Shown here: positions 7,544 through 55,795 of the stretch, one piece after another | Position numbering within the stretch: the first letter of the stretch is position 1 | How the letters are laid out: each line of letters starts with the position of its first letter | Assembly (NCBI GenBank): GCA_964472925.1 | Contig: CAYYNL010000002.1 | Span: 1 to 59,702 of the forward strand | DNA length: 59,702 nucleotides | From: an uncultured Fibrobacter sp. | GTDB lineage: Bacteria; Fibrobacterota; Chitinivibrionia; Chitinivibrionales; Chitinispirillaceae | Direction: 5' to 3' | Notes under the pieces: model-generated | The model's database searches: none | Told to the model about the DNA's origin: nothing | Seen by the model: only the letters and a program-made list of their open reading frames with translations | Made by a program: the position numbers and the translations under genes

Positions 7544-8146
7544 ATGAAAAGCTCCTCAACATCCTTTTTTATTAACAGTTTTTTGATCATAATTTCTACT
7601 CTCTTTTCTCTTAAAGCCGATTCTCTGTCTAGTACTGTACCAAAAATTTTCTTCAGCCCAGCACTCACTGCATCCATACGTAACCCGATCGGAAAATCAG
7701 CAGATCTCTGGAAACACTACAATTCTGCAGGTTTAAGCTTTGAATTCCCCTCTCGAATGAATAACTTATATTGTGAAGCCGCGTTTGAAACCGGACATGT
7801 TTTTAACAAGCTTAATACCAGTTCAGCCTATCTGTTGCATATCCATTTTGGAGTTCAGTATAGTATTGATACTCCTATAAAATGGTTGAAAGTGTTACCC
7901 CAGATAAGTATCACCAATACCATGGTAAGCAAATCCAATGTCTTTGATGCACTTTTTAAAACCGACCGGATCTCCTTTGCCGATGTAGAAAATGAATACG
8001 GTTTAAGGGGCGGTATAGAAACAAGGCTGGTTTTCAGGAATTTTTTCATCGGCATCCCTGTAATAATCGAAAGAACATTTTCCGATCCTGTTCCTCTTGA
8101 TCTGTTTCTTATCAATGTCATCGCAGGTTATAAATTCTACTTATGA
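7544..8146 (+). CDS. hypothetical secreted / outer-membrane protein
   Basis: 200 aa with a signal-like N-terminus (FFINSFLIIISTLFSLKA) and an aromatic C-terminus (GYKFYL). ATGA overlap with the next ORF. Confidence 0.45.
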   Translation: MKSSSTSFFINSFLIIISTLFSLKADSLSSTVPKIFFSPALTASIRNPIGKSADLWKHYNSAGLSFEFPSRMNNLYCEAAFETGHVFNKLNTSSAYLLHIHFGVQYSIDTPIKWLKVLPQISITNTMVSKSNVFDALFKTDRISFADVENEYGLRGGIETRLVFRNFFIGIPVIIERTFSDPVPLDLFLINVIAGYKFYL

Positions 8147-35041: not shown

Positions 35042-36550
35042 TTAGAAAAGCGCAACTCCGCTCATCTCCTGAGGTTGAGCAATCCCAAGAATCTTTAACA
35101 TTGTAGGAGCAATATCAGAAAGCTTGCCACCTTCCCTAAGATTAAGATCACCATTACCCACTATGGTCAATGGTACGACATTGGTGGTATGTGCAGTCAT
35201 GGGAGAGCCATCTTCTAGCATTGTCTGCTCTGCATTACCGTGATCTGCAGTTAAAATACAGCAACCGCCTTTGGCTAACACCGCTTCTACTACATCATGT
35301 ACACAAGTATCCACAGTCTCCACCGCTTTGACGATTGCACTGAAAACTCCAGTATGGCCTACCATGTCACAATTGGCAAAATTACAAATGATCACATCAT
35401 ATTTTTCGCTATTTATCGCCTCTACCAGCTTATCCCGCACCTCAAAAGCACTCATTGAAGGAGCAAGATCATAAGTTGCCACTTTCGGGCTGTTCACCAG
35501 GATTCTTTCCTCACCATTAAAGGGCTCATTCTTTTGTCCGTTAAAGAAAAAGGTGACATGTGCATACTTTTCTGTCTCTGCGCATCTTAACTGCTTAAGA
35601 CCATTTTTTGCCAGTACCTCTCCAAGAATATTTTTGTTTTCCAACTCAGGATATGCTTCTTCAAAATTTCCATTATCATAATAATGAGTCATCGCAACAA
35701 AACATGGAACGATAAATGGACGTTTTTCAAATCCGGTAAAATCCGACTCAACCATAGCTTTGGTTAACTGACGGGTCCTGTCAAAACGAAAATTGAAAAA
35801 TATAAAAGCATCATTTGGATTCATCCCCTGGTAATCGATAATCCGCGGCTTGATAAATTCATCAGTCTGGTTTGATTCATAAGAATTCTCAATCGCATCT
35901 TTCCAATTGCTTTCCTTTATTCCTGTACCCTCGATAACTGCGCGATAAGCAAGCTCGGTCCTGTCCCAGCGGTTATCCCTGTCCATGGCATAATAGCGCC
36001 CGATCACCGTAGCCACTCTTCCCACTCCCACCTGATCGATTCCATCCTGAAGAAACTTCATGTGTTCCAAAGCCGATTTAGGCGCAGTATCTCGTCCGTC
36101 AGTGATGGCATGAATAAGAACATTACTGAATTGACGTTTTTTACAAAGTTTCAATAAAGCTATGCAATGTCTGGTTACAGCATGAACGCCTTCCTCCTGA
36201 ATCAGACCCATAAGATGCAGTGTGCTGCCGTGTTCCTGAGCATAATCTATGGCCCTGTTGAATGCTTTATTGCTAAAGAAATCTCCATCACTAATTGATT
36301 TGTCTATTCTGGTAAGGCTTTGGTAAATAGTTCTTCCGGCACCGATGTTCAAATGTCCTACTTCACTATTACCCATATAACCTTCGGGCAGCCCGGCACT
36401 CAGACCTGATGTTTCAATAAAAGTCGTCGGAAAATTCTTCTCGTAAAAATCTGTAAATGGTGTTCTGGCTTTGTAAATGGCATTTGAATCCTCTTCATTA
36501 CCTTTACCCCATCCGTCACGCAGTATCAGACATACAGGCCGTTTCTTCAT
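35042..36550 (-). CDS. gpmI: 2,3-bisphosphoglycerate-independent phosphoglycerate mutase
   Basis: 502 aa. ILRDGWG, GNSEVGHLNIGAGR, ITDGRDT, NFANCDMVGHTG and LTADHGNAE are hallmark iPGM motifs. Confidence 0.95.
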   Translation of the reverse strand: MKKRPVCLILRDGWGKGNEEDSNAIYKARTPFTDFYEKNFPTTFIETSGLSAGLPEGYMGNSEVGHLNIGAGRTIYQSLTRIDKSISDGDFFSNKAFNRAIDYAQEHGSTLHLMGLIQEEGVHAVTRHCIALLKLCKKRQFSNVLIHAITDGRDTAPKSALEHMKFLQDGIDQVGVGRVATVIGRYYAMDRDNRWDRTELAYRAVIEGTGIKESNWKDAIENSYESNQTDEFIKPRIIDYQGMNPNDAFIFFNFRFDRTRQLTKAMVESDFTGFEKRPFIVPCFVAMTHYYDNGNFEEAYPELENKNILGEVLAKNGLKQLRCAETEKYAHVTFFFNGQKNEPFNGEERILVNSPKVATYDLAPSMSAFEVRDKLVEAINSEKYDVIICNFANCDMVGHTGVFSAIVKAVETVDTCVHDVVEAVLAKGGCCILTADHGNAEQTMLEDGSPMTAHTTNVVPLTIVGNGDLNLREGGKLSDIAPTMLKILGIAQPQEMSGVALF

Positions 36551-36991
36551 TTAGATAATGCTCCTTGAGAAAAAATTTATACCTGCTCCGCTTAAGACAG
36601 CCTTTCAGCGATCTATCGAAGCGAATTAAAGAGTTCAGCTAACCCGCTTTAGCCCATTAATCGGGTAAAGCCAGAATTAAAGCCTCTAAATATAGTAAAA
36701 ATCCTTTAACTACTCTGAAATTTCCGATAATTATAAAATCCAAAAAATTCCAAAACTATAGGCATCGAATCACAAACCCCCAATAGGAAAATTCCAATAA
36801 CCAATTATTAAAAGATCCCATTCCTGTTTCGGATTTCTAATTCTCCTTTCATACTCCTGTTCTTTTTTCCAATTTCTAACATTGTAACTTAGGATTTGTT
36901 TGAATTTATAGGAAACCAATATTTTGATTTTTATCCGCAGAAAGGCTATCTTTAAGGATTAAAAAACTGCAATCATTTTTCTTTTGAGGGA

Positions 36992-37978
36992 ATGATCATG
37001 CGACCAGCATCTTATACTTATTTATCTGAAAATGAATGGAATGAGCGTATCTCTAAAGCAGAGGCTATTGCTGCAAATTGCCAGCTCTGCCCCAGACGAT
37101 GCCGGGTGAATCGGCTTATTGGAGAAAAAGGATTCTGTGCCGCCCCTGATAAAATGATCATTTCCAGCATTTTCCCTCATCATGGTGAAGAACCCCCGAT
37201 TTCCGGTGAAAAAGGTTCAGGAACGGTCTTCTTCTCTTTTTGTACTCTTAAGTGCTGCTTCTGCCAAAATTACCAGATTTCCCACGAACACGAGGGGAAA
37301 CCTTACTCGATTGAGGAACTGGCCGATAAAATGCTTCATCTTCAGGAGCTTGGATGTCACAACATTAATCTGGTAACCGCAACTCATTTTCTTCCCTGGA
37401 TCCTCAAGTCACTAAGGGAAGCAGCCAAAAAAGGGCTCTATCTTCCCATCGTTTATAATTGCGGGGGTTATGAACTCTGTTCCACTATTTCACTGCTTTC
37501 CGATATTGTTGACATCTATCTTCCAGATATGAAATATGGCATAGAAAAAGCGGCAACCGATTATTCATGTGCTCCTGATTATGTGCAAATTAATAGAGAT
37601 GCAATTAAGGAGATGTTTCGCCATGCTGGACCATTGCGCTTGGATCAAGATGGAATTGCATGGAGAGGTCTTTGTATACGCCATCTGGTGCTTCCGGGTA
37701 ACCTGGAATCCAGCATATCAATCTGTAAATTCCTCAGTTCAACTTTTGATCCTGAAGATATCTCAATAAGCCTCATGGCCCAATACAGGCCTCTTTTTAA
37801 GGCAGATCAATTTGAAGCGCTAAGGAATACTCTTACTCCTGAAAGCTACTCTCTTATCAGGGACAAATTTATTTCTGCAGGATTTGGAGGGTATTACCAG
37901 GAATTGGAACAGTTGGACAAATCATTTCTGATTAACTTTAAGGAGCATAAGGATAAGCCATTGACTGGTAATTCATAG
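36992..37978 (+). CDS. radical SAM protein (PflX-like, pyruvate formate-lyase-activase-related)
   Basis: CPRRCRVNR...GFC N-terminal Cys cluster plus FFSFCTLKCCFCQNYQIS (CX3CX2C), about 330 aa. Confidence 0.8.
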   Translation: MIMRPASYTYLSENEWNERISKAEAIAANCQLCPRRCRVNRLIGEKGFCAAPDKMIISSIFPHHGEEPPISGEKGSGTVFFSFCTLKCCFCQNYQISHEHEGKPYSIEELADKMLHLQELGCHNINLVTATHFLPWILKSLREAAKKGLYLPIVYNCGGYELCSTISLLSDIVDIYLPDMKYGIEKAATDYSCAPDYVQINRDAIKEMFRHAGPLRLDQDGIAWRGLCIRHLVLPGNLESSISICKFLSSTFDPEDISISLMAQYRPLFKADQFEALRNTLTPESYSLIRDKFISAGFGGYYQELEQLDKSFLINFKEHKDKPLTGNS

Positions 37979-42526: not shown

Positions 42527-44251
42527 TTATAACAGATTCCAGGTCAGTATTTTATCGGAAGGTTTCAAAATAAACTGAAGCTCACAGAAATTATTTACTT
42601 GCATATATTGATTAAACAGATTCAAAAGTATCAGTCCAAACAGATGAAGGTCTTGTGTATCTTTAAACACCTCCTCTTCAATGGTAACAACAAAACGTAT
42701 CCCGAATATGAGACAACCCCTATATGCTTTATGCACCGGTTCGCTTTTTACATCGGTAACAGATTCTATTATGTAATTTTTCTCTTCAAGACCTGACCAG
42801 TTATATAGATGAAGATATTTCCTTAGCACTTCTTTATCTGCTAATCTTTTTATATTTGCCACCAGATTAGTATGAAAAGCCCATACATATTCATCATTTT
42901 CTGGAGGAGATACCGGCAATGATGGCCGTGTAATATTGGAAATTTTTATGTAATCAGGAAAACCTTTTCCTAAACTGTTAATATCTCCTTCATAAACCAT
43001 GTCTCTGGGAAACCTTCCGTTTGTGCACCATGCTTCAATTACTATTATCTCTTCCTTTATCTCTTTTCCGAAAAGATTAGAACCTCCAAACGAAATATTC
43101 ATCTGCCGCTTTCCTTCTGCAGTATAAACGAATCGTGTGGTATATGTATTGGCAGATCTATTTCTGACATTTCTAAATGTATAGTAAGGCTCATACACAG
43201 TTTTCTCACCTGTTACTTTGTTTATTCCTGTTACAGAATGAATACTATGTACAGCCATATTTTCAGATTCATAATCTGCAACCACCCGATATTCAGGCTG
43301 TGTCCCGTTTTTCACCACAGGTTCTGCGTTCTTTAGAAACATATTTACAACAGGACTACAATATAGCCTGAATATGGAAGAGGAAAATTCTCTTCCCACA
43401 GGAAACCGTTCTGAAATGGTTATTCTTATGATAATTGTCTCAGGAGTCGTTTGGGGCTCTGGCAGAGTATCTATTCCTCTGAATTCAATGAATTGAAACT
43501 TTTCAGGAAATGCAAAATATTCCTTTAATAAATTATGTCCATAGAAAGATCGTTTGGAAGTCGGTAAAATTGTCTCATCGATCTCAAAACCTCCAGCTTT
43601 AATGGCTTCCCTTGGATCGATGGAGTAATGCGTTCCATCTTTTGTATATTGCACTTCGAACTTTTTCGCTTCAGTGGTAAATAAACGATGCAAAGTCATG
43701 GCAACAGGATATTCTGCATATAGAAAGATGCTTATTTTTTTTAAGTCGTACTTTTCCCATTTGACCGAAGTATCCAGACTGAATTCAAAAGTAAAAACGT
43801 CGTTATTCTGGTTATCACTTTCTTTTTTTACTGCAACTAATAATAATGGATTAAATACTATCGGTTTAACAGTTCTGAACCTGCATATATCCAAACCAGG
43901 ACCTATTTGACCGGTAGTTATTTCTGATCCTGCAGGTAAGATTCTGCTCTCTTGAAGAAATCCTGCTCGTGGCTCAAATTGGACTATGGCCAAAGATGGT
44001 ATTTCCTGGAAAAACTGTGGCCATATCAGATTTATAAGTCCTTCTGTCAACCTGGGCAGAGATTCATCCAGTTTCTCACGAATCCTTCCTGCAATAAATG
44101 CAAAACCCTCAAATAAGCGTTCCACATATGGATCCCGATCCCCAAGAGAATCGATATTAAGATAACGTGCAAGCTGTGGATGAGCTTTGGCAAATTCAGC
44201 TCCGGACTCATAAAGATATCGAAGTTCCTCTTCGTAATATTTTTCTATCAC
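42527..44251 (-). CDS. tssF: type VI secretion baseplate subunit TssF
   Basis: KYYEEELRYLYESGAEFAKAHPQLARYL ... DPYVERLFEGFAFIAGRIREKLDESLPRLTEGLINLIWPQF is the canonical TssF N-terminus. Confidence 0.9.
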   Translation of the reverse strand: MIEKYYEEELRYLYESGAEFAKAHPQLARYLNIDSLGDRDPYVERLFEGFAFIAGRIREKLDESLPRLTEGLINLIWPQFFQEIPSLAIVQFEPRAGFLQESRILPAGSEITTGQIGPGLDICRFRTVKPIVFNPLLLVAVKKESDNQNNDVFTFEFSLDTSVKWEKYDLKKISIFLYAEYPVAMTLHRLFTTEAKKFEVQYTKDGTHYSIDPREAIKAGGFEIDETILPTSKRSFYGHNLLKEYFAFPEKFQFIEFRGIDTLPEPQTTPETIIIRITISERFPVGREFSSSIFRLYCSPVVNMFLKNAEPVVKNGTQPEYRVVADYESENMAVHSIHSVTGINKVTGEKTVYEPYYTFRNVRNRSANTYTTRFVYTAEGKRQMNISFGGSNLFGKEIKEEIIVIEAWCTNGRFPRDMVYEGDINSLGKGFPDYIKISNITRPSLPVSPPENDEYVWAFHTNLVANIKRLADKEVLRKYLHLYNWSGLEEKNYIIESVTDVKSEPVHKAYRGCLIFGIRFVVTIEEEVFKDTQDLHLFGLILLNLFNQYMQVNNFCELQFILKPSDKILTWNLL

Positions 44252-44691
44252 TTTTTAACCTCCTGATTCATTTTGTTGGAAATTTCAGGAGGTTGATTTG
44301 GAATAAGAACCGTATGGAACATTACTTCTGGTCCTTCTATAATTTCTGCTGATATAACAAAAAAGATATTGCCACTATTTCCTTCCGATTCTAATGCTTC
44401 TACCTGGACATTCTTAAGCCTTGTTTCATACTTTTTAACTGTATCCCTTATAGCTTCCTTTAATCTTCTTATTCCTTCGGGTGTTGATCGGTAAATTTCT
44501 GAAAACTCCGGAATTCCATAATCTGCCAGATGTTGAATTGAACCACGCCTAGTGTTAAGAAGACGAAAGAGATGATCCATGATTGATTTTGTTTTTTGAT
44601 AACCCGCTGGCACCGATTCAACAGGATTTCCATCCAGAAATTTTCCAGTCAGACATTCAAATAAACCTGTCTTCACCCATTTTTCTCCCAT
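44248..44691 (-). CDS. tssE: type VI secretion baseplate subunit TssE (gp25-like)
   Basis: SIMDHLFRLLNTRRGSIQHLADYGIPEF is the gp25/TssE signature. Start moved to ATG 44691 because the ORF-track start at 44793 overlaps hcp by 35 nt. ATGA overlap with tssF. Confidence 0.8.
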   Translation of the reverse strand: MGEKWVKTGLFECLTGKFLDGNPVESVPAGYQKTKSIMDHLFRLLNTRRGSIQHLADYGIPEFSEIYRSTPEGIRRLKEAIRDTVKKYETRLKNVQVEALESEGNSGNIFFVISAEIIEGPEVMFHTVLIPNQPPEISNKMNQEVKK

Positions 44692-44758
44692 CCTGCTTTG
44701 ATTAAAACCCAAGAAAAACCGATCCTCCGGCTTTTTCCGGAGGATTTTAATTTTTCTC

Positions 44759-45235
44759 TTAACGACCTTCCAACCAGGAATCGGTATGCACATACCCCCC
44801 TTCCGGATACTCCCAGGTTATCTTTCCATATCTGAAACTTACTTTTTCCATATGCACAAATCGTTCAAATTCTCTGGCTTTTACATTATACATAATCGGT
44901 TCTACAGAACAGACTTTTACAGTTTCCAGAAGATGACTGAAATAAAGCACCTCTGCCCCCTGATCATCGATTTTATACCAATCCACTTTCATTTTATCGT
45001 ATGTTATCCCTTCACAGACTGCTTTATAAAGAAGTGGAGAAGATTGGTCAAATGCTTTTATGATCTGAAAGGCTTCATGTTTCCTGGTTCCGGTTAATGC
45101 ACCTGTATCCGGGTCGGTAGGGATCCTAACTTCATGGTGAAACTCCAAAACCTCAATACTGTTTTCTCTGCCAGCAACAGTACATCCTCCCTTAATTTTG
45201 CCATCATTAATCCACATGTAGGCTGGTATAGGCAT
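44759..45235 (-). CDS. hcp: type VI secretion tube protein Hcp (TssD)
   Basis: 158 aa. MPIPAYMWINDGKIKGGCTVAGRENSIEVLEFHHEVRIPTDPDTGALTGTRKHEAF matches the Hcp1 family pattern. Confidence 0.9.
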   Translation of the reverse strand: MPIPAYMWINDGKIKGGCTVAGRENSIEVLEFHHEVRIPTDPDTGALTGTRKHEAFQIIKAFDQSSPLLYKAVCEGITYDKMKVDWYKIDDQGAEVLYFSHLLETVKVCSVEPIMYNVKAREFERFVHMEKVSFRYGKITWEYPEGGYVHTDSWLEGR

Positions 45236-45338: not shown

Positions 45339-46895
45339 TTATTTGCCTTTGGGCATCTGACTTACAAGAAATAGACTTACATCAATTCCTTCTATCTGAA
45401 AATGCGGTATAACCGATAATGAAACAGAAAAGAATCCTGGATTATCTGTTAACTCATTTACACTCACCTCGGCTGCTTTCAATGGATGTGTTGCAATAAG
45501 CTGCGGACCCGGATCAGGCATTTCGGTAACCAATCCCTTTATCCATTTATTTAACTCCTCCTGAAGTACTGCTTTGCTTTTAGTAGTTCCGATATTTTCC
45601 CGTTGGATTATTTTCAGATAATGAGCTATCCTGGAAATCATGAAAATGTAAGGCAATCTTGAATTAACCTTTAAATTCGCATTTACATCAGGATTATCAG
45701 TTGGAACAATTTTCTGAGCAGAATTGGCAGAAAAGAAACATGCGTAATTGCTATTCTTATAATATGACAATGGAATAAATCCTTCATTGGCGAACTCAAA
45801 TTCGCGGGTTTCCGGTATTAATATCTCGGTAGGAATCTTCATCTGCGTTCCCTTTCCGGCATCGAAAAAATGAACCGGCAAATCCTCTATCTTTCCTCCC
45901 GATTCAGGGCCACGAATCTGAACACACCATCCATTTTCAACAAAAGAACGAATCATATTGGAAGCAAATGCGAATGAACTGTTTCCCCACAGATATTTCT
46001 GATGATCCTTACCTGTTACTTTTTCAGTGTAATTAAATTCCTTTACTGCAACAGTATCTGGTCCGTATGGAAGCCTCAATGTAAATCTGGGCAAAGTTAA
46101 ACCCACATATCTGGCATCCTCTGTTCTCCTAAATGAATTCCACCTCATAAATTCTGAACGATCCATGAATGTATGCAGATCTTCTATTTTTGTCAATTCA
46201 CTAAAGTCTTTTTTGCCGAAAAAACCTGGTGAAACAGCACCAATAAAAGGGCAGTGACATGCAGCAGCAACCTTGGAAATATTTTGGAGAAATCCAATAT
46301 CCTCTGCAGTATTATTGAATTCAAAATTGGAGATCATTGCCCCATAAGGTTCTCCACCAGGAGTATCATATTCATCTGTGTATACCTGTTTATATATACC
46401 GGATTGAATTATTTCTGCAGCATCCTCGAAATCTTCATTAATCACCTCCTTTGCTACATCCAGAAGATCTATTTTCACATTTTTGTGAAAGTCAGTCCTG
46501 TCTACCAGAAATTTCAGACTCCTCCAGGCGGATTCCATACTTTGAAAATCCGGATGATGCATTATTTCATCAAGCTGTTCTGATATTTTACTGTCAATTT
46601 GAGCGATTATCATGTCAATAAGATTTTTATCAACCTTTTCTATGCTCATTTCATTAAGAACAATACTTTCCATGAAAAATTTCAATGCTGCACCTATTCG
46701 TTCATTTGAACTGCTCTCTGCCAAAGCTGATATTTCCGCATATATCATCACATCAATCTCTTTTTGTGGAATTGTCAGCTCCATAGAGTCGTATATATAT
46801 TGTAAATGATTTTGAATTTCAGTAGGGTTCTTCTGCATTTCCATCTTTTCATTTAACATGAATTGCTCCTCACCATAACCATTTTTACGATTCAA
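45339..46895 (-). CDS. tssC: type VI secretion contractile sheath large subunit TssC
   Basis: 518 aa of VipB/EvpB-type sequence (WRSLKFLVDRTD, GEPYGAMISNFEF, AAACHCPFIGAVSP, RLPYGP, NAQKI). Follows tssB. Confidence 0.9.
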   Translation of the reverse strand: MNRKNGYGEEQFMLNEKMEMQKNPTEIQNHLQYIYDSMELTIPQKEIDVMIYAEISALAESSSNERIGAALKFFMESIVLNEMSIEKVDKNLIDMIIAQIDSKISEQLDEIMHHPDFQSMESAWRSLKFLVDRTDFHKNVKIDLLDVAKEVINEDFEDAAEIIQSGIYKQVYTDEYDTPGGEPYGAMISNFEFNNTAEDIGFLQNISKVAAACHCPFIGAVSPGFFGKKDFSELTKIEDLHTFMDRSEFMRWNSFRRTEDARYVGLTLPRFTLRLPYGPDTVAVKEFNYTEKVTGKDHQKYLWGNSSFAFASNMIRSFVENGWCVQIRGPESGGKIEDLPVHFFDAGKGTQMKIPTEILIPETREFEFANEGFIPLSYYKNSNYACFFSANSAQKIVPTDNPDVNANLKVNSRLPYIFMISRIAHYLKIIQRENIGTTKSKAVLQEELNKWIKGLVTEMPDPGPQLIATHPLKAAEVSVNELTDNPGFFSVSLSVIPHFQIEGIDVSLFLVSQMPKGK

Positions 46896-46935: not shown

Positions 46936-47457
46936 TTAAGCCTCATTGACAGTTTTCTCTGTTGAATCCGGAATTAGTTTTTTTAATTCTCCTAGTAATG
47001 CTTTTGAAGATTCGTTATCTTTTAAGATCCCCTCCAGACGTCTTCTGAATTCTCTGTTATCTATCAGATTCGATTTAAGATCTTTGAGTAGATTCCTCGC
47101 GGCTAAAAGCCTGCTTATAGCTGGAATATTTTTGGCCACATACTCAGGTCTGAATGATTTCATATTTTTGATTTTTAAATGAACTTCAAGCATTTTATCC
47201 TTTTCTCTGGAAAGCTTGTCATCAACTGCATAATCCAACGACAGACCCATCCCCTCCATAACCTGCTCCAGATTATTTTTGTTGATACTAATTTTTTCCA
47301 TATCAGAAATTCTCTCAGATTTCTTCTTCTTTGAAAAATCACCTGTAACCAGAATTTTAAATGGCAACTCCACTTTTTTCCTGGTATCCCCTTTTCCTAC
47401 ATCCAGTTTTAAATTGATCCTGGCAGGCGGTATCTCATTTTGAAAACTCCCGGCCAT
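46936..47457 (-). CDS. tssB: type VI secretion contractile sheath small subunit TssB
   Basis: MAGSFQNEIPPARINLKLDVGKGDTRKKVELPFKILVTGDFS is canonical VipA/TssB. ATG 47457 (AAAGG upstream) preferred. The ORF-track start at 47475 would overlap tssA. Confidence 0.9.
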   Translation of the reverse strand: MAGSFQNEIPPARINLKLDVGKGDTRKKVELPFKILVTGDFSKKKKSERISDMEKISINKNNLEQVMEGMGLSLDYAVDDKLSREKDKMLEVHLKIKNMKSFRPEYVAKNIPAISRLLAARNLLKDLKSNLIDNREFRRRLEGILKDNESSKALLGELKKLIPDSTEKTVNEA

Positions 47458-47461
47458 ATTA

Positions 47462-48976
47462 TTACCTTTCATCAAAAGATTGATAATTTAATGCAGCTCC
47501 CGGATCCAAATTACACATCATTTTCAGAGCATTATCTCTTTTATCAATAAGTACAGATCTTTTATCTCCAGATTTATCTTTTGCCATTAACTCATAGGTT
47601 TTTACCATAAGATTAAGAAGATCCACAACCAGCGATGGTACCCATTTGGCCAAATAATAAGTATTAGCCAGTTCGTAAAGTGATTCCAGCATATATAAAG
47701 CAATTTCAAGCCTTTTTACTTCGAGCATATAAGAAACAATCGATAATCTTCTTCTGAAATTATCAAGCTCGTTTCCGTCACTTCTAATTTCATCTACCAG
47801 ATGCACCAGATCGGTTTCAGTATTGCTTGCAACTACAGAGGACTTTATGCCTTCCTTTTCCACTCTGCCTGAATTATCACCCACTTTATTAAAGTTGCAA
47901 AACAGCGGGATTATATCATGCTTAATCCATCTTTCTGTTTCAGAATCACTGAATGGTGTACCATCTATAAATTTCAATTCCCTTATTTGCGGATATTTGT
48001 TCAGAAACATGGCAGTTTCAAAAGTAATAGTCTCCTTAACTCCAGCAAATGTAACCCCGAGATTATCAGCAGCATTAGCTGAAATTCTTTGCAATTCAAA
48101 CCAGAAAAGCGTATTGCCTGAACTGAACATTTTTTCCGATTGAACTAATGCAGATTTGTAATCTCTCTTTTCCAGTAATGATATCAAATACTCTCTTCTT
48201 TCTTTTGATGGGGGTTCGATCTTTGTTATTTTTTCTTCTGCAAATGGAAGCATTTCAACATTACTCCAACGTATAATCCTCATTAACCGGTAACCGGCAG
48301 TTTTTTGCGGCTCCTTCTCTATTAAAAACAAAGCACACTTGCGAATCGTATCGAATGCAGCTTTGGCTGTTTCAAATTCACCAGATGATTCGCTTATTAT
48401 TGAATTCTCCTTTGAAACATATTCTTTGGAAGATTCTTTATTTTCAATTGGTTGTGAAATTTCCGCCTGTTTCTTCTCAGTCAATTGTCGCCATTTTTTA
48501 GCGAATGCATAAAGCTTCTCTGGAAAAGGGGATGATTCTGGAAAATTTAAGGTGAGAGAGTCCCTCAGATTATCTAATACCGAAGCCAACCGATCCATTT
48601 GATCATGAGCATCACTGGAGACTGTAGCGTTTTCAAGCATCTCTGTAAACCTGCTCTCTTCCAGCCATTTAAATGCCATCCTTTTTCCCTGCAGCCGCCT
48701 GGGAAATAAAGAATCAAATCTTTCTTTGGTTAAGTGTACCAATGCTTCGAAAAGATCAACAAAATAGCACCAGTTCTCTTTTTTCAGATAACATAATGCC
48801 AGGTAAGAAAACACACGAATGTCTTTACTTTTATTATTCAGTATATAACAGGCTTTTTCTTCAACAAGCTCGTAATCAATACATTCTGACTTGCTGACTT
48901 CTTGCTTAATAGTTTCGAAATCAGAGTCGTAATTTAACTCACTTCCACAGTCATTTTCACTAAAGACTGCCTTCAA
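47462..48976 (-). CDS. tssA: TssA-like protein (ImpA N-terminal domain family)
   Basis: N-terminal ENDCGSELNYDSDFETIKQEVSK fits the ImpA_N motif (G-x-D/E-L-x-Y-D-x-x-F). First gene of the locus. TTG start in the ORF track, true start uncertain. C-terminal domain not recognised. Confidence 0.65.
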   Translation of the reverse strand: MKAVFSENDCGSELNYDSDFETIKQEVSKSECIDYELVEEKACYILNNKSKDIRVFSYLALCYLKKENWCYFVDLFEALVHLTKERFDSLFPRRLQGKRMAFKWLEESRFTEMLENATVSSDAHDQMDRLASVLDNLRDSLTLNFPESSPFPEKLYAFAKKWRQLTEKKQAEISQPIENKESSKEYVSKENSIISESSGEFETAKAAFDTIRKCALFLIEKEPQKTAGYRLMRIIRWSNVEMLPFAEEKITKIEPPSKERREYLISLLEKRDYKSALVQSEKMFSSGNTLFWFELQRISANAADNLGVTFAGVKETITFETAMFLNKYPQIRELKFIDGTPFSDSETERWIKHDIIPLFCNFNKVGDNSGRVEKEGIKSSVVASNTETDLVHLVDEIRSDGNELDNFRRRLSIVSYMLEVKRLEIALYMLESLYELANTYYLAKWVPSLVVDLLNLMVKTYELMAKDKSGDKRSVLIDKRDNALKMMCNLDPGAALNYQSFDER

Positions 48977-49743
48977 TGAATTTAAAAGGATTTCAGAAAT
49001 GAGATCCTCCTGGTTGTTTTTTATTCCAGTTTTTAAACCTTCAGAATTCCAGAAACAGCTCAGCCAGAAATGAGAAAAAAGGAAAGGAAATTTAAATGGA
49101 ATACTCAGAAAAGATGAAGCATAAAATGGAAATGCTGTTACATTAATATAATTGAAAGTAATACTGTTAAAAACAAGTATCTTTCAAATTGGCTGACATT
49201 TCCATCAAAACGCTCCTGATAAGAACGATTTTCTTATGTATAATATAATTTGGGATTAGACTGACTGTGTATTTCAGTTTTCACTTTTTTTATTAATTTA
49301 TACAATAGGAATGGCCAAATTTGCTGATGGTTGCCTGGGAGTTCCCGGATTTTTTCCTTTTTTCACCATGTTCATCCAAATAGAAGCTTATCTCTTCAGA
49401 CACGAATGAAGCATTGCATAAACCTGACAAATTGAAGAATTGTTTAAATAACTCAGTTATAATTTATTTTTCCCTATCATTAAAGACAGCAGTAAAAACA
49501 GCATTATTTCTGATGATGGCTATTTAGGCAGTAAGTGAAATTAGTTCAATTTTAATATTATCAAATCAAAGTCTCTCTACTAAAGAATATTAAGGCATTA
49601 TGTATTTTCGCTATTTAGTTCTGGTTTTCTCTCTGATCCGATTCTCTTTCTGATTATCCCTGTTTATTCCTTTTCTTTTAATATTTCTCTCTTATTACTG
49701 TATTATTTCGATTTAACTCTGATTTCAACAAGGACTCCCGCTT

Positions 49744-51237
49744 ATGAATAAATACTATCTGGAAATAATTCGCGGAATTGACCTCGGAAAAAGATATGCA
49801 TTGGTTGAAGGGGTAATTACGATAGGTCGCAGTGATGATAATCTGATAATTCTCAATGAAAACGAACTGTTGGTTTCAAATCATCACGCTATTCTTTATA
49901 TATACCCAAATAATATCTGCATCCAGGATATAAACAGCAGAAATGGAACATATCTTAATGGCCAACGAATCAGTCTCAATGAGGTAAAGCTAAATGATAT
50001 AATCGGCTTCGGTGAAAAAGGTCCCCAACTGAAACTTATCTGTACTACTGAAGATATCACTCAAAATGAGTCCGTTTTGCAAACACCATGTATCTCTAAG
50101 GTTGAAATCTCCTGCATTAATGATAGCCCACCCGAATCAGCATCGATCTTCACTACAGATATTGAGCATAAAATTATGAATAACAGTATTAATGCAGATG
50201 AATTGACGAAGTTAATGGAGCAAAGTGCTTCTCTTAAGAAGATACTTCAAAAAGGAAATCTTCCTGAAACTCAATCTAATCTTCTCTTTAGCGATTACGG
50301 AACCCATCAAAGAAACCGTATCCGTATTATAATGCTGACATGTTCCATCATTCTCTTTTCACTTTTCTCTATAGCATATCTTACAATCCGGTTTTTTCAA
50401 ATTAAATCAAAACCAGATTCAGAACTCATCTCTAAAATGACAGAGAATAAAAAATCAATTGATTCACTACTTTTTAGTTTCAGTCAACCAATCCAGATAG
50501 ATCATCTTAGATCTCTATTCAATACATGGGATTATCAACCTGTCATTAAAGATACAATAGATTTTTTTCTTTATGAGATATTATCCGGTTTTGGGCACAC
50601 CGACTACCAGATCCCTCCACAGATGTCAACTACCGTTAAACGTCATCTGGAAACCTATTCCCAAACCCAAAGATTAATGACCAGCAGATTATTAAAAAGA
50701 AAAGAGCTCTACTTTCCTATGATTCAGAAAATATTTTCGGAGAAAAATATACCGTCTCAGTTAGCCTATATTTCTATGCTTGAGAGCGGTTTTAATCCTA
50801 AAGCATTGAGTCATGCAGGTGCAAGGGGCCTGTGGCAGTTTATGCCACATACTGCACGAAAATATGGATTGAAAGTTGACAGCTTTTCTGATGAACGTAT
50901 TGAGCCACAAAAAGCCACTTATGCAGCAGCAGAATATCTTAGAGACCTTATTGGAATTTTTGGAGCAAAAAGTTCAATTATGCTTGTCATGGCAGCTTAC
51001 AACGCAGGTGAGGAAAGAATTATGAATGCTCTTCGGAAAATTGAAGATCCTATTCGTGACCGTGATTTCTGGTATATTTATAGAATGGGTTACCTGTCAG
51101 AGGAAACAAATGAGTATATTCCCAGAATACTTGCTTTAATGATAATAGATAATAATCGTGAGTATTTCGGCTTCACAAATCAAGATATCGCGACTACCCA
51201 AATTGGCGAAACTGAGGATGACTATTGCAATTGGTGA
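49744..51237 (+). CDS. FHA domain - TM helix - MltD-type lytic transglycosylase (SLT) fusion protein
   Basis: FHA: ITIGRSDDNLIILNENELLVSNHHAILYIYPNNICIQDINSRNGTYLNGQRI. TM near residues 194-216. SLT: AYISMLESGFNPKALSHAGARGLWQFMPHTARKYGL ... AAAEYLRDL ... LVMAAYNAGEERI. Confidence 0.8.
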   Translation: MNKYYLEIIRGIDLGKRYALVEGVITIGRSDDNLIILNENELLVSNHHAILYIYPNNICIQDINSRNGTYLNGQRISLNEVKLNDIIGFGEKGPQLKLICTTEDITQNESVLQTPCISKVEISCINDSPPESASIFTTDIEHKIMNNSINADELTKLMEQSASLKKILQKGNLPETQSNLLFSDYGTHQRNRIRIIMLTCSIILFSLFSIAYLTIRFFQIKSKPDSELISKMTENKKSIDSLLFSFSQPIQIDHLRSLFNTWDYQPVIKDTIDFFLYEILSGFGHTDYQIPPQMSTTVKRHLETYSQTQRLMTSRLLKRKELYFPMIQKIFSEKNIPSQLAYISMLESGFNPKALSHAGARGLWQFMPHTARKYGLKVDSFSDERIEPQKATYAAAEYLRDLIGIFGAKSSIMLVMAAYNAGEERIMNALRKIEDPIRDRDFWYIYRMGYLSEETNEYIPRILALMIIDNNREYFGFTNQDIATTQIGETEDDYCNW

Positions 51238-51346: not shown

Positions 51347-52087
51347 TCAGTTACTTTTCTGAGCCTTAACCACCTTGGTTTCCTGTGCATCCGGACATTG
51401 TTCCACCAGTTTTTTCCAGGTTAGCGTTTTAGATTTGTCCTTCTTCTGCCTTTCGTATACCAGACCAAGCTTGTAAAGAGAAACACAGAGTTTAGTTCCC
51501 TGTGGATAATTTTTGATATAACTAAGATAGGCATTTTCTGCATCACTGTATTTTCTGGTGGCATAAAAACATTCCGCAATCCAGTACTGGGCTTCCTGAG
51601 CCAGTGATGATTCCTGGTACTGATTTGTAATGTTCTGAAAAGCACCTAATGCGATATCATACCTTCCTGCATTAAAATCGCTCATAGCCAGTTGAAAAAA
51701 CTTTTCAGTTTCAGAGGCCCTGGAACTTGAAGCAGAGTCAGCAATAAGCTTTGCTTCGAGTCTTTTGTTGAATTCAGCCGTTTTTTCATCGATCTTTGAT
51801 AGCTTGAACTGACTCTCCGACAAATTGCCATCGATAGTCGATACTTTTCTGTCCAGCTCGTTGAATCTTATCTGAATATCTGCTCGGAGCAGCCTTAATA
51901 CCTCTGACTGATTTTTCTGTTCTTCCAGCATTTTCTTCTGCATGGCTGTGAGCTCCGATTGTAACGAATCAACCTGAGCCTTTACCGCACGCAATTCCTG
52001 AGTCCTTAACATAGTAAGATTTGTACAGCCCTGAAACTGTGATACGCTAAAAAGAAATACAACCGTTAGAATAAACTTTTTAATCAT
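51347..52087 (-). CDS. cpoB: Tol-Pal system protein CpoB/YbgF (coiled coil + TPR lipoprotein)
   Basis: Lipobox FQGC, coiled-coil N-terminal half, TPR half (AGRYDIALGAFQNITNQYQESSLAQEAQYWIAECFYATRKYSDAENAYLSYIKNYPQGTK). Last gene of the tol-pal operon. ATG 52087 with GAGGTG upstream. Confidence 0.75.
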   Translation of the reverse strand: MIKKFILTVVFLFSVSQFQGCTNLTMLRTQELRAVKAQVDSLQSELTAMQKKMLEEQKNQSEVLRLLRADIQIRFNELDRKVSTIDGNLSESQFKLSKIDEKTAEFNKRLEAKLIADSASSSRASETEKFFQLAMSDFNAGRYDIALGAFQNITNQYQESSLAQEAQYWIAECFYATRKYSDAENAYLSYIKNYPQGTKLCVSLYKLGLVYERQKKDKSKTLTWKKLVEQCPDAQETKVVKAQKSN

Positions 52088-52129
52088 CAACTCACCTCTT
52101 CCAAAATATCTATCCGATATAACCGGCAA

Positions 52130-52678
52130 TTATTTAGCCAGCACCTTAAATTCAGCCCGACGGTTCTGCCTGTGACAGGACTCATCGGCACAACCAGTGA
52201 TCAGCGGCATCTCCTTACCCAAAGAAGTTATTTCTATGCGAATCGGCAAAATCCCCAGATTCAAAAGATAATCCCTCACCGCCCTGGCCCTTCTCTCACC
52301 AAGTCCCATATTATACTCTGATGATCCCCGCTCATCACAGTGCCCCTGGATAAGAATGCGAATACCGGAATATTCATTCAGAAATTTTGCGGCAGTAAAC
52401 AGTTTCTGCACAGCTTCATCATCAAGACTATAGCTGTTAAACTCAAAATGGATGGCATTAAGATTCTCTTTGACCTTTGATGCGATCTCACTTGCCAGAT
52501 CAGCCTCAATAAATGAAACTTCATCTGTTGTATCTACCCCTTTAAACAGATCCGGCTGTGGAGTAGCTTTCTGCACAGTGTCTCTGGGAACATCCATCAG
52601 GGTAGAAACCTGTTTTCGACACCCGTACACAAATACTGCTACAAACATAAAAAGTATCAGCAGAAAATTTCTTGCCAT
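52130..52678 (-). CDS. pal: peptidoglycan-associated lipoprotein Pal (OmpA-like domain)
   Basis: Lipobox VYGC. OmpA_C motifs IHFEFNSYSL, GHCDERGSSEYNMGLGERRARAV and NRRAEF. ATG 52678 chosen. Confidence 0.85.
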   Translation of the reverse strand: MARNFLLILFMFVAVFVYGCRKQVSTLMDVPRDTVQKATPQPDLFKGVDTTDEVSFIEADLASEIASKVKENLNAIHFEFNSYSLDDEAVQKLFTAAKFLNEYSGIRILIQGHCDERGSSEYNMGLGERRARAVRDYLLNLGILPIRIEITSLGKEMPLITGCADESCHRQNRRAEFKVLAK

Positions 52679-52700
52679 AATAAATTCCTGGTTTTCGGGA

Positions 52701-53945
52701 TTAAAAATCAGACCAATCCGGCATCTTAACATTCCCGGTACTGGTCACCCTGCGAAGTCTGGTACCGTCGGGCTTTACCACATAAAGATCACTATTGCTT
52801 CCTACTGTATTGACAAAAGCTATCAGGTATCCATCCGGTGACCACGCCGGGTATTCGTTATTTCCTCCCAGCTCTGTCACTTTGGTCAATCCGGTTCCAT
52901 CTGGTGCTATTGTCCATATATCGAATTTACCATTGTCCATCGATTGAAAGGCGATTTTATCTCCTTTGGGTGACCAGGCCGGAGAATCGGTATATTTGCT
53001 TTCAAAGGTTAACCGCCTCTGGTTGGCCCCATCAGCATCCATTACATAAATCTGTGGATTACCCGATCTGTCAGAGGTAAAGGCGATCTGATAACCGTTT
53101 GGAGACCATGATGGTGATGTATCCACACCGTAATGAACCGTAAGCTGCCTGACATTTGTACCATCAGGGTTACAGGTATAGATATCGAGATTACCCTTTA
53201 CAGAGGACCCATAGGCAATGGTCCCATCTATGGGCGATACATCCGGACTGGTTGTAATGGCTTTACTGTATATGTGAATTTTTGAAGAGCCATCCGCAAT
53301 AGATCCTTTATACATATCCGGCTTTCCCCTGAGATATGAGATCCACAGGATATTGTTGGCATCGGCAAAGGTGGGGAAAATATTGATCACATTGTTTTTG
53401 GTAATAGTAACCCTGTTATGACCATCAAAATCCATTAGAGCGATATCTTTTCTGTTTCCGGAAGCACTTACGTATAAGATGCGGCTGAGGAATATTCCAC
53501 GATCCCCGAAAAGTATCTCCACAATCTCGTTGGAATAGCGATGGGAAATGGTTCTTATCGATTTCAGATCACCTTTATATTTCTTACCAATTATCAGTTC
53601 CTTTGATGCAGCATCCCTGAGATAGCAATTAACAGTAACCTGAGAACCCTCGATTACATATTCGCCATCGATATAAATTCCCACGCTGGCAGCAGCAAAT
53701 GCCGCACTGTCGTAATCGCCAAGGCTTGTTACTGTAAACCTGCCGCAAAAATCCAGATCAGAAAAGATTATTTTCCAAGGCTGGTTTTCCTCTTCGCTTA
53801 TCACCTTTCCGTTAGTGGAACGGAAATCGATTATCCCAATCGGTATGGAATCAAATTTACTGGCATAAATTTCCAGATCGATTTTTTCTGCATGAATTGC
53901 ACACGTAAGAATCAGAAATGATAAAATGTAAAGTGGTTTCGGCAT
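52701..53945 (-). CDS. tolB: Tol-Pal system beta-propeller protein TolB
   Basis: Repeated propeller blades (SPSWSPNGYQIAFTSDRSGNPQIYVMDADG, SPAWSPKGDKIAFQS, YPAWSPDGYLIAFV). ATG 53945 sits 1 nt after the upstream stop. Confidence 0.9.
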   Translation of the reverse strand: MPKPLYILSFLILTCAIHAEKIDLEIYASKFDSIPIGIIDFRSTNGKVISEEENQPWKIIFSDLDFCGRFTVTSLGDYDSAAFAAASVGIYIDGEYVIEGSQVTVNCYLRDAASKELIIGKKYKGDLKSIRTISHRYSNEIVEILFGDRGIFLSRILYVSASGNRKDIALMDFDGHNRVTITKNNVINIFPTFADANNILWISYLRGKPDMYKGSIADGSSKIHIYSKAITTSPDVSPIDGTIAYGSSVKGNLDIYTCNPDGTNVRQLTVHYGVDTSPSWSPNGYQIAFTSDRSGNPQIYVMDADGANQRRLTFESKYTDSPAWSPKGDKIAFQSMDNGKFDIWTIAPDGTGLTKVTELGGNNEYPAWSPDGYLIAFVNTVGSNSDLYVVKPDGTRLRRVTSTGNVKMPDWSDF

Positions 53946-53946
53946 A

Positions 53947-54609
53947 TTATTTCCTGGTTGGGATAAGGGTACAATTGAGATCCAGTTTATCACCCGAAAA
54001 ACCTGGCGGTAGTTTTCCAAATGGTGCTGCAAGCTTCACTGCACGCAGAGCAATATTATCGATAGTACTGCTGCCAGAAGACTGCCGGATGGAGGGCTCT
54101 GATATGTTTCCATCATTATAAATAATAAAATGCACTACTACCTTTATATGGTGATTCTCTGTTGGAGGATTCCAATACCTTTCAAGTTTCTGCTGAACCT
54201 GGTTAAGATACCAATGAAATTTAAAATCCCCTACAGCAGAAACACTGGTTGGTGCCGGAAGCTCCTCAAGAATAGATGCCAGTTCATCTAAGTTCTCCTC
54301 AACTGCCTTGGAAGGCTCAGTTTTAGGTTGAGGCTTTGCATTTCTATCGGAACTTTTTTTAGTGGAAGGTACCGGTTTCGGTTCAGGTTTAGCTTCCCTG
54401 CGAGCCACTTTCTGCGGAGTCGACGGACGCAGGGGCGACACTAACTGAAAGGTCTGGGGGCGCTGAAATGTTCTAGATTTCCAGGTCAGTTTTAAAATTA
54501 GAGGAATACCAATTAACACCACCAGATGAAAGGCAATGGAGATAACAAAGAAAACCCAGCCACTCTCCTTTTGATAATCGTATGTCATCATCATATCGGA
54601 TCTGGACAT
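53947..54609 (-). CDS. TolA-like / TonB-family energy transducer
   Basis: One N-terminal TM, a Pro/Lys-rich linker (PSTPQKVARREAKPEPKPVPSTKK...KPQPKTEPSK) and a TonB_C-like C-terminal domain. Occupies the tolA position between tolR and tolB. Confidence 0.65.
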   Translation of the reverse strand: MSRSDMMMTYDYQKESGWVFFVISIAFHLVVLIGIPLILKLTWKSRTFQRPQTFQLVSPLRPSTPQKVARREAKPEPKPVPSTKKSSDRNAKPQPKTEPSKAVEENLDELASILEELPAPTSVSAVGDFKFHWYLNQVQQKLERYWNPPTENHHIKVVVHFIIYNDGNISEPSIRQSSGSSTIDNIALRAVKLAAPFGKLPPGFSGDKLDLNCTLIPTRK

Positions 54610-54613
54610 ATTA

Positions 54614-55033
54614 TTACCTTTCGGGAGTCTCTAAAGGCAGTGTCAGAAATCCCAGTTTTACCACCCCCGCTTTCTGTATCTCCCCTATCACCCTTATTAC
54701 CAAACCATAGGGCACCTTGGCATCTGCATTCACAAATACAGGTGTTTCCTTTTCTCCGGCAAATACTTCCCGAAAGCTCTTTCTGAAATCCAGCAGAGAC
54801 ACTTTCTCATAATCGATGTAAATCTCATTTTTCGAATTGATAGTAACCTGAATCGATTTATCTACTTCCACATTTTCGGCATCAGCCTTGGGAAGATCCA
54901 CCTGTACCCCCTGAGTCATCATCGGAGCTGTAATCATGAAAATAATAAGTAAGGCAAATACCACATCGATCAGGTTGGTAAGATTGACATCGCTTATAAC
55001 ATGACGACGCCTGGCTTTTCTTTTTTGGCCCAT
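54614..55033 (-). CDS. tolR: biopolymer transport protein TolR (ExbD family)
   Basis: 139 aa. NLTNLIDVVFALLIIFMITAP is the canonical ExbD/TolR TM segment with the conserved Asp. Confidence 0.8.
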   Translation of the reverse strand: MGQKRKARRRHVISDVNLTNLIDVVFALLIIFMITAPMMTQGVQVDLPKADAENVEVDKSIQVTINSKNEIYIDYEKVSLLDFRKSFREVFAGEKETPVFVNADAKVPYGLVIRVIGEIQKAGVVKLGFLTLPLETPER

Positions 55034-55051
55034 TGTCTGTTCCCCTGCTTC

Positions 55052-55795
55052 TTAAACCCGCGGCATCTGTGATGGTTGTGTGCGACCGGGGCGTTCCGTG
55101 TAAAGCAGATTGAATATCTCCCGTTTCAACCGCACTATCACCAGTTCCTTAAACTCATCCATCTGGTTTTCCAGTTTTTCTGCCCGGTGATTGAAGTAAT
55201 TATAGAAGAATAGCGATGGAATGGCCACTGCCAAACCCACGATAGTAGTAATAAGAGCTTCGGCAATTCCTGGAGCAACTACCGGTAAGGATGCAGAGCC
55301 CTGATTTCCAATTTCAAAAAAGGAATTCATTATTCCCCAAACCGTTCCTAAAAGGCCCAAAAATGGAGCAATGCTGCTTATCATCGCCAGAAAAAACACT
55401 CCCTTATCCAGAGGAGCAATAAGTGCCATGAATGCGCTCTCCATTCGCTCAGATGCCATGGTGAATTGGTTCTGCAGAAAAAATGACCAGTCTTTAACAC
55501 CGGTATGGGATTTTGCATCCTCCAGAATTCTTCGATATTCCATTGCGGCTGTACGTCCTAACTGCCCCATTGGAGCCCCCAGGGTTTTGGCATCCATCGA
55601 TTCAATTTCGGAGAGTTTATTGATCATATCATAACGACGTTTGAAAAGTTTATTTTTGGCCACAACCGAAGCCAACGCAAAATACCGGTTAAAAATTATA
55701 GCCCAGGAAATAAGTGAAGATATTGCCAGAAGAACGATGATAATTCTACCAGCCCATCCCGAGCGAATAATCATATCGATTACAGGAATATGCAT
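55052..55795 (-). CDS. tolQ: proton channel TolQ (MotA/TolQ/ExbB family)
   Basis: 247 aa, three TM helices. APFLGLLGTVWGIMNSF and PGIAEALITTIVGLAVAIP motifs. Confidence 0.85.
   Translation of the reverse strand: MHIPVIDMIIRSGWAGRIIIVLLAISSLISWAIIFNRYFALASVVAKNKLFKRRYDMINKLSEIESMDAKTLGAPMGQLGRTAAMEYRRILEDAKSHTGVKDWSFFLQNQFTMASERMESAFMALIAPLDKGVFFLAMISSIAPFLGLLGTVWGIMNSFFEIGNQGSASLPVVAPGIAEALITTIVGLAVAIPSLFFYNYFNHRAEKLENQMDEFKELVIVRLKREIFNLLYTERPGRTQPSQMPRV

Follow-up and report, generated by a model that had tools for sequence, protein, structure and literature searches.

Our subject is a 59,702-nucleotide stretch of DNA from an uncultured Fibrobacter sp. (contig CAYYNL010000002.1 of assembly GCA_964472925.1; the window in what follows) and one of its genes, at 49744..51237 on the plus strand, which starts with ATG and encodes a protein of 497 aa. 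On sequence grounds the protein is bitopic and sits in the inner membrane, with an FHA domain in the cytoplasm, a single transmembrane (TM) helix and an MltD-type lytic transglycosylase (LT) in the periplasm; we call it FHA-LT. It is a clade B member of a sizeable Fibrobacterota family made up of two sister clades, and the architecture is not a rare one. We hold with high confidence that the clade B gene is genuinely associated with a type VI secretion system (T6SS), and we consider it fairly probable that a phospho-signal there recruits or activates the protein to cleave glycan locally, so that the membrane complex can be inserted.

The domains of FHA-LT follow one another along the gene, all on the plus strand. 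The cytoplasmic FHA domain (residues 1-101, 49744..50046) is placed by Pfam, by the conservation of its pocket, by Foldseek and by the AlphaFold2 (AF2) model, with a predicted local distance difference test score (pLDDT) of 82-92. It is followed by a cytoplasmic and mostly disordered linker (residues 102-192, 50047..50319; pLDDT <50 at 104-135), by the TM helix (residues 193-215, 50320..50388; hydropathy, AF2 model and relatives), by a periplasmic stalk that is helical, modelled with low confidence and little conserved (residues 216-269, 50389..50550), and by the periplasmic LT domain of family 1 (residues 270-480, 50551..51183). Pfam matches FHA (PF00498) at residues 25-90 with E 1.5e-14 and 54.6 bits against a cutoff of 20.7, and SLT (PF01464) at residues 333-432 with E 6.5e-26 and 90.6 bits against a cutoff of 21.3; Yop-YscD_cpl also matches the protein (E 1.6e-11). 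Among the NCBIfam models MltD (PRK10783, residues 317-476) is the top LT model and the FHA part is closest to mycobacterial FhaB/FipA. When the family profile was compared with the sequences of the PDB, Pseudomonas aeruginosa MltD (8rhe, E 1.6e-31) came first, followed by the FHA domains of Rv1747, EmbR, FhaA, GarA and OdhI. The AF2 model, built from 17 sequences, has a mean pLDDT of 73.8 and reaches 80-92 across the FHA and LT domains, with a confident beta-sandwich at 1-101, disorder at 104-135, a long helix at 175-220 that includes the membrane segment and a confident helical LT domain at about 270-480. Foldseek matched this model to MltD structures and its FHA domain to OdhI, GarA, FhaA and ArnA (TM-score 0.74-0.92). 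FHA-LT is thus a member of both the FHA and the family-1 LT superfamilies. An earlier note, made by reading the letters of the window, had seen in this gene an FHA signature, one TM helix at about 194-216 and an MltD-like LT with the two domains on opposite sides of the membrane, and each of these readings is borne out.

Membership in the better known families is another matter. The MltD equivalog NF008050 is matched over the catalytic core only, at 105 bits where its cutoff is 508, and the TagH/Fha1 model TIGR03354, which describes a soluble protein of about 420 aa, is matched over the FHA region only, at 23.8 bits where its cutoff is 120. With both scores below the membership thresholds, FHA-LT is neither MltD proper nor TagH. 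MltD (1D; 8RHE, 8RHF and 8RHI), the top match in both sequence and structure, shares the catalytic fold and motifs; however, it is an outer-membrane lipoprotein with C-terminal LysM repeats, whereas FHA-LT has no lipobox and no LysM and instead an N-terminal FHA domain and an inner-membrane TM helix. Pfam gave no LysM match in FHA-LT, and no OmpA-type binding module was found in it.

The residues needed for function are kept across the family. In an alignment of 134 sequences the phospho-Thr pocket (G28-R29, S45-x-x-H48 and N67-G68) is retained in 133-134, the catalytic Glu (E347 in MLESGFNP; codon checked at 50782-50784, +) in all 134, and the E347-S348, GLWQF and AYNAG motifs show no variation or almost none. 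Given this conservation, both halves of the protein look active. A further residue, linker Thr137 (codon checked at 50152-50154, +), stands out as invariant within an otherwise poorly conserved stretch, in the motif S-x-T-x-[ED]-[LIM]-E-x-K-[IL]. All sequences of clade B (33/33) and clade A (96/96) have threonine at this position, as do 4/5 from the outgroup. Many bacterial FHA domains favour a hydrophobic residue at +3 of the phospho-Thr. Thr137 is best described as a candidate phospho-acceptor and candidate FHA ligand, its phosphorylation being putative.

The topology is simple. The window protein has one hydrophobic segment, at 193-215, with a Kyte-Doolittle maximum of 2.37, and hydropathy gives no signal-like segment at its N-terminus; exactly one TM helix is present in 133/134 relatives. 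Because there is a single TM helix, the FHA and LT domains must lie on opposite sides of the membrane. Lys and Arg residues flanking the helix in the 134 relatives point to an N-in orientation in 83 proteins versus 16 for the reverse. FHA ligands come from ATP-dependent kinases and LT substrates are periplasmic, so N-in/C-out is the sole sensible arrangement.

At least 120 protein clusters carry the full-length FHA-LT architecture, and those with a named source are from Chitinispirillaceae or Chitinivibrionales. When species-representative genomes were scanned, full-length copies numbered 14, from as many different Fibrobacterota metagenome-assembled genomes (MAGs), with a few others in Myxococcales; the remaining matches covered the LT half only. 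No genome was seen to have a second copy. In a neighbour-joining tree built on 26 sequences labelled by gene context, class B (88/100 bootstraps) and class A (87/100) were each monophyletic and sister to one another, while Fibrobacteria (about 30% identity) and Myxococcales fell outside the pair. When the tree was enlarged with 120 database sequences to 134 in total, 33 fell in clade B and 96 in clade A and the context labels stayed unmixed. Two Myxococcales MAGs (L031:430-1956 and L039:6054-7580) encode 508-aa proteins with an N-terminal FHA-like region and an LT about 40% identical, so the architecture is not confined to Fibrobacterota. No T6SS matches were found near these two copies.

Linkage to type VI secretion genes in clade B

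In the window eight tss genes, every one full length and on the minus strand, lie upstream of FHA-LT and divergent from it between 38163 and 48976: tssA (47462-48976; Pfam ImpA_N and T6SS_VasJ), tssB (46936-47475), tssC (45339-46895), hcp (44759-45235), tssE (44248-44793), tssF (42527-44251), tssG (41578-42513) and tssM (38163-41558). Neighbours in other genomes were mapped by tblastn and on Pfam-annotated contigs. The clade B loci come from 10 genomes, namely the window, L013, L081, L083, L084, L086, L087 (the cultured Chitinispirillum alkaliphilum), L088, L091 and L094, whose FHA-LT proteins are 45-75% identical to that of the window. In 10/10 of them FHA-LT is divergent from a block that runs tssA...tssG and ends in tssM or clpV, with the small variation that in L094 hcp lies between tssA and FHA-LT (hcp-tssA). 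The same linkage was predicted for a blind pick, the then unexamined clade B protein P0040 of L094, which is atypical in its length of 556 aa, and its gene was found in the middle of a T6SS cluster. Comparing T6SS linkage in clade B (10/10) with clade A (0/11) gives a Fisher exact p of about 3e-6, a value that overstates the evidence because the observations are phylogenetically non-independent.

Base composition tells the same story for the window. The GC content at third codon positions (GC3) is 0.315 for FHA-LT and 0.29-0.36 for the eight tss genes, as against 0.37-0.44 for all sampled flanking genes, and it breaks sharply between the radical-SAM gene (rSAM) and tssM and again between FHA-LT and cpoB. 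By composition FHA-LT is the last gene of the T6SS island. Two further statements of the earlier note, that FHA-LT is transcribed divergently from tssA and that it shares the low GC of the T6SS block, are hereby confirmed, the first with a spacer of 767 bp and the second sharpened by GC3.

The island has also travelled with FHA-LT. On the left of the window's tss genes stand iPGM (35042-36550, -) and rSAM (36992-37978, +), which adjoin with a 441-bp spacer. A homolog of rSAM that is 82% identical (P0123, locus L093) is on the same 366.8-kb contig as P0004, the FHA-LT of L081. Locus L093 has PilQ...PilO-PilN-PilM, PilZ, HDOD, GT2, iPGM(-) and rSAM(+) in synteny with about 25-38 kb of the window, yet in this genome unrelated genes follow rSAM, and tssM...tssA with FHA-LT lie 170 kb away. 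Given this distance from the syntenic site in a relative whose FHA-LT is 75% identical, the T6SS block and FHA-LT moved together. We rejected a simpler model in which the T6SS island was inserted between FHA-LT and rSAM, since the order iPGM, rSAM, T6SS, FHA-LT fits no single insertion or inversion; the L093/L081 relative, with the block elsewhere, counters it as well. The island shows no signs of a mobile element in the form of a tRNA or meaningful flanking repeats. The rSAM homolog of C. alkaliphilum was not among the 120 matches listed.

The window's T6SS set consists of tssA, B, C, hcp, E, F, G and M, with no tssJ or PAAR in the 59.7 kb. Searching the same 59.7 kb by tblastn with the proteins of relatives gave no Ser/Thr kinase, PEGA protein, TssK, TssL, VgrG or ClpV. 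As the block is incomplete within this length, the T6SS genes of the window's genome are divided between two or more loci, and those of L081 and L083 likewise. The locus of L086 (1-11575) looks decayed, with tssF in two open reading frames (ORFs), tssA called at 313 aa and transposase genes near; its FHA-LT is without the first 18 or so residues, and both decay along with the T6SS and an assembly error of the MAG are possible.

On its other side the clade B gene has a variety of immediate neighbours: cpoB, SurA, ARM/TPR, VgrG (twice), a Ser/Thr protein kinase (STPK), DUF2169 (twice), an aminotransferase and a transposase fragment. In L084, L088, L091 and L094 this flank encodes an STPK and a PEGA protein (both minus strand) as well as tssK-tssL (plus strand), and vgrG or DUF2169 adjoins FHA-LT in three of the four. 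With tssA on one side and STPK-PEGA/tssK-tssL on the other, FHA-LT is in these four genomes interior to a complete T6SS cluster. The kinase has its kinase domain at about 99-367, 44-50% identical to that of the clade A kinase described below, then one TM helix at about 400-420 and about 260 C-terminal residues, which must be periplasmic given a cytoplasmic kinase domain and one TM helix; this is the layout of PpkA. The PEGA protein combines a signal peptide with a TM helix at the C-terminus. Measured against the TagE-TagG-TagH set, these four loci have the kinase and the FHA protein together, and no further FHA protein was seen in them. No PP2C phosphatase was found within 10 kb in any locus, nor was a PppA-type phosphatase or TagF seen in the sampled loci.

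In the same four clusters TssL is of the short type and has no peptidoglycan-binding domain. Its N-terminus (NFTKTIISQTMDINLS) is rich in threonine and follows NFT[KE]TI[IL]SQT[ML]D[IL]NLS in L094:18398-19150, L084:18060-18779 and L088:16070-16792, and the motif is missing from the called start of the L091 protein. For Agrobacterium it is reported (PMC3953482) that PpkA phosphorylates an N-terminal Thr of TssL, which Fha then binds. By analogy with this precedent the TssL N-terminus is a candidate phospho-site and a plausible ligand of the FHA domain in clade B.

The clade A operon and its sheath-fold protein

Clade A was sampled at 11 loci (L001-L008, L089, L090 and L092), some on cut contigs that show only part of the operon. 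The gene order begins with iPGM(-) and a small gene(-), after which come, on the plus strand, an optional gene for a 555-aa protein, FecR/LysM, a CHASE2-domain Ser/Thr kinase, FHA-LT and rSAM. The kinase, of about 785 aa, directly precedes FHA-LT with tight, operon-like spacing. This FecR-CHASE2-STPK-FHA-LT-rSAM operon is present in 11/11 loci, and tss core genes in 0/11. In the Fibrobacteria outgroup (L011) an adjacent and divergent STPK accompanies FHA-LT among housekeeping genes. From the clade A operon and L011 it follows that the deeply conserved pairing is that of the kinase with FHA-LT, and that linkage to the T6SS is specific to clade B. The earlier note had proposed co-occurrence with T6SS loci as a check of its reading, and this divides by clade: the association held in every sampled clade B genome and failed at all sampled clade A loci, where the same architecture is common and unlinked to T6SS genes, an outcome that the note had named as a refutation. 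For clade B the note's suggestion, that this one protein could couple a cytoplasmic phospho-signal or docking to peptidoglycan opening at the assembly site, is supported to the extent that sequences can tell.

The canonical site of this operon corresponds to 35042..37978 of the window, where it is empty; the operon is missing between iPGM and rSAM in the L093 genome too. In the 11 clade A loci the small gene, FecR, the CHASE2 kinase and FHA-LT separate iPGM from rSAM. An OmpA/Pal-like gene lies 0.5-1 kb downstream of rSAM in L006 (13084-13623), L008 (14516-15079) and L092 (13765-14307), and the copies of L006 and L008 are 40-42% identical to the window's Pal.

The gene for the protein of about 555 aa opens the operon in 5/11 clade A loci: L092:4956-6623 (+), L008:4888-6573, L006:4896-6560, L004:4849-6459 and L090:4851-6473. 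The protein gives weak matches to models of both TssB and TssC, and in hhalign these are colinear, with residues 32-150 aligned to TssB (78%, E 1.8e-5) and 200-377 to TssC (92%, E 6.5e-7). It has 50 relatives (clusters) in the database, which often carry both Pfam families. Its AF2 model has a pLDDT of 81.6 and a predicted TM-score (pTM) of 0.79, and the best nine PDB structures in Foldseek are T6SS sheath proteins of the TssC/VipB type, with a TssB match in addition. On the combined evidence of models, alignment, relatives and structure we identify it as a single-chain TssB-TssC sheath-fold protein. Within 10 kb of its genes neither Hcp nor baseplate genes were found.

The link of the kinase and FHA-LT with sheath-derived genes either predates clade B or arose more than once. 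A bolder reading is that the kinase and FHA-LT are an old Fibrobacterota module for breaching the wall that co-evolved with contractile-sheath machinery, which would be the canonical T6SS in clade B and, in clade A, the sheath-fold protein with FecR/LysM and rSAM, an undescribed minimal or repurposed system and not a relic. We consider this distinctly unlikely.

Proposed function and its alternatives

The mechanism that we favour for clade B would begin with a receptor-type, PpkA-like Ser/Thr kinase, whose gene is part of the cluster in relatives and presumably lies outside the window in the window's own genome, and which would phosphorylate a threonine on the kinase itself, on the TssL N-terminus or at Thr137 of the linker. 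The FHA domain would then dock on the phospho-threonine and the enzyme would thereby be recruited, clustered or released at the TssL/TssM assembly site, where its periplasmic domain would cut glycan strands locally and let the membrane complex span the wall. One polypeptide would in this way do the separate jobs of TagH/Fha and of MltE/TagX. The phospho-dependence of the docking, the identity of the ligand, the enzymatic activity and the requirement for secretion are what we infer here. Since the clade B gene always occurs with a T6SS cluster, this would probably be an undescribed way to tie the opening of the wall to a kinase signal.

Each part of this proposal has a known counterpart. TagH/Fha1 with TagE/PpkA likewise places an FHA protein with an intact pocket and a receptor-type Ser/Thr kinase in a T6SS cluster; however, TagH is soluble and has no enzymatic domain. 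MltE of the enteroaggregative Escherichia coli Sci-1 system is, like FHA-LT, an LT with a proposed role in opening the wall to the membrane complex, but it is a housekeeping outer-membrane lipoprotein recruited by TssM, encoded outside the T6SS locus and lacking a cytoplasmic signalling domain. TagX of Acinetobacter and others resembles FHA-LT as an in-locus, inner-membrane-anchored periplasmic peptidoglycan hydrolase that aids T6SS biogenesis, and it differs in being a VanY-type L,D-endopeptidase that does not cut glycan strands and has no FHA domain. The closest FHA domains are found in the mycobacterial modules of PknB with FhaA/FipA and of Rv1747, which have the same layout of kinase, FHA domain and membrane protein, although none of these STPK-FHA modules fuses the FHA domain to a peptidoglycan-cleaving enzyme. 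In Rv1747 the phospho-acceptor threonines are in a disordered linker beside the FHA domains. The same order of cytoplasmic FHA fold, one TM helix and periplasmic domain occurs in YscD/PrgH of the inner-membrane ring of type III secretion, but YscD is made up of ring-building motifs on its periplasmic side, where FHA-LT has an enzyme.

A 2026 review of T6SS accessory genes attributes wall remodelling to in-locus TagX or to MltE, the latter not encoded in T6SS loci, and describes TagH/Fha as a soluble protein that reads phosphorylation and works together with TagE/PpkA and TagG/PppA. Neither this review nor searches of the full-text literature yielded a description of the FHA-LT fusion, in agreement with the earlier note, which knew of no described example. 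The genome paper of C. alkaliphilum mentions the T6SS and not the FHA-LT gene. The way in which the T6SS membrane complex passes the wall, and in which this breach is confined in space and time, is known for no more than two systems, MltE and TagX, neither of which has a cytoplasmic input. If the proposal is true, FHA-LT would be a direct physical link between a threonine phosphorylation pathway and wall opening within one protein. It would also be a case of a kinase-controlled wall enzyme absorbed into a secretion cluster, comparable to the 'domestication' of MltE but genetically fixed. One host, C. alkaliphilum, is in culture.

Several observations weigh against a dedicated T6SS role. Clade A, with 96 of the 129 sampled Chitinivibrionia sequences, and the Fibrobacteria outgroup have the kinase and no T6SS genes nearby, which means that FHA-LT can work without a T6SS. 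With one copy per genome, as far as seen, the clade B protein could serve general wall turnover. The window contains no kinase, phosphatase, TssL or TssK, and in 6/10 clade B loci a PpkA-like kinase of the cluster type was not found within 10 kb. The split between clades A and B may follow the species tree, which would make the 10 clade B observations non-independent. Additionally, the flanking charges of the window protein itself give only a moderate signal for its topology.

The main alternative is that FHA-LT is a general wall-remodelling enzyme under the control of a Ser/Thr kinase, comparable to the PknB-FHA control of the wall in Actinobacteria, with no specific role in the T6SS, and that its place beside tssA goes back to one ancestral rearrangement. 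The kinase is indeed the deep partner, in 11/11 clade A loci and in the outgroup L011, and a single copy of FHA-LT per genome would suit a general enzyme. In two clade B genomes, moreover, the canonical site lacks the clade A operon, so that the clade B gene may encode the only such LT of these cells. However, FHA-LT has stayed linked to tssA, down to 45% protein identity, although the other flank was replaced in almost all of the genomes. The block was also relocated as a unit, GC3 groups FHA-LT with the island, and four genomes have FHA-LT inside the T6SS cluster and the kinase beside tssK-tssL. On balance we regard this alternative as unlikely.

A second alternative takes FHA-LT to be a membrane-anchored equivalent of TagH/Fha whose periplasmic domain mainly binds peptidoglycan, anchoring the machine in the manner of TagL and not cutting the wall. 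It would account for the short TssL without a peptidoglycan-binding domain, given that in the review loci with a short TssL usually have a compensating wall-binding accessory protein and none was seen in the sampled loci. Yet the catalytic Glu, GLWQ and AYNAG are conserved in 134/134 sequences, which argues that catalysis has probably been kept, and the protein has no LysM or OmpA-type binding modules. The chance that FHA-LT is such an anchor seems to us slim.

The remaining two candidates were rejected. The cpoB/ybgF-pal-tolB-tolA-tolR-tolQ block (51347..55795, -) forms the right flank of the window's FHA-LT gene, starting 110 bp past its stop codon and convergent with it, and the septum is a site of action of Tol-Pal as well as of lytic transglycosylases, so FHA-LT could be thought to belong with this division machinery. 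The adjacency is found in 0/9 other clade B and 0/11 clade A loci, GC3 breaks between the two and is normal in the Tol-Pal block, which we place outside the system, and the idea is hardly credible. That FHA-LT is a secreted, peptidoglycan-degrading T6SS effector, as its position within a T6SS locus and the frequency of muramidases and LTs among T6SS cargo could suggest, has next to no chance of being right in view of the cytoplasmic N-terminal FHA domain, the internal TM helix and the presence of the same protein in T6SS-free kinase operons; nor was an adjacent immunity gene, PAAR or MIX-type delivery feature noticed.

Intergenic control region and remainder of the window

The spacer between tssA and FHA-LT (48977..49743, 767 bp, GC 0.305) is a divergent control region common to the two genes. 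Four clade B loci (the window, L081, L083 and, in part, L084) have kept its tssA-proximal part of about 320 nt (48977 to about 49300), with GTGGAAATGCTG and ATAATATAATTTGGGATTAGA as examples; this part probably serves both genes as a regulatory region, or else forms a long leader. A regulatory RNA in the 767 bp was considered and rejected, as no Rfam family matches the spacer. A sigma-54 promoter was likewise rejected for want of a consistent motif over the 10 loci. There is a sigma-70-like site at 49216-49244 (+), and such sites in the spacer do not exceed the shuffled expectation. None of the small ORFs in the spacer is convincing.

The rest of the window is made up of housekeeping genes, among them those for lipid A and glycosyltransferases, an RND efflux pump, NrdD/G and type IV pilus genes. 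Three ORFs have no Pfam family: 7544-8146 (+, 200 aa), 8143-9777 (+, 544 aa) and 26431-27966 (-, 511 aa). The last of these lies between pilO and the secretin gene of the type IV pilus cluster and is kept in L093 as a protein of 504 aa, also with no Pfam family.

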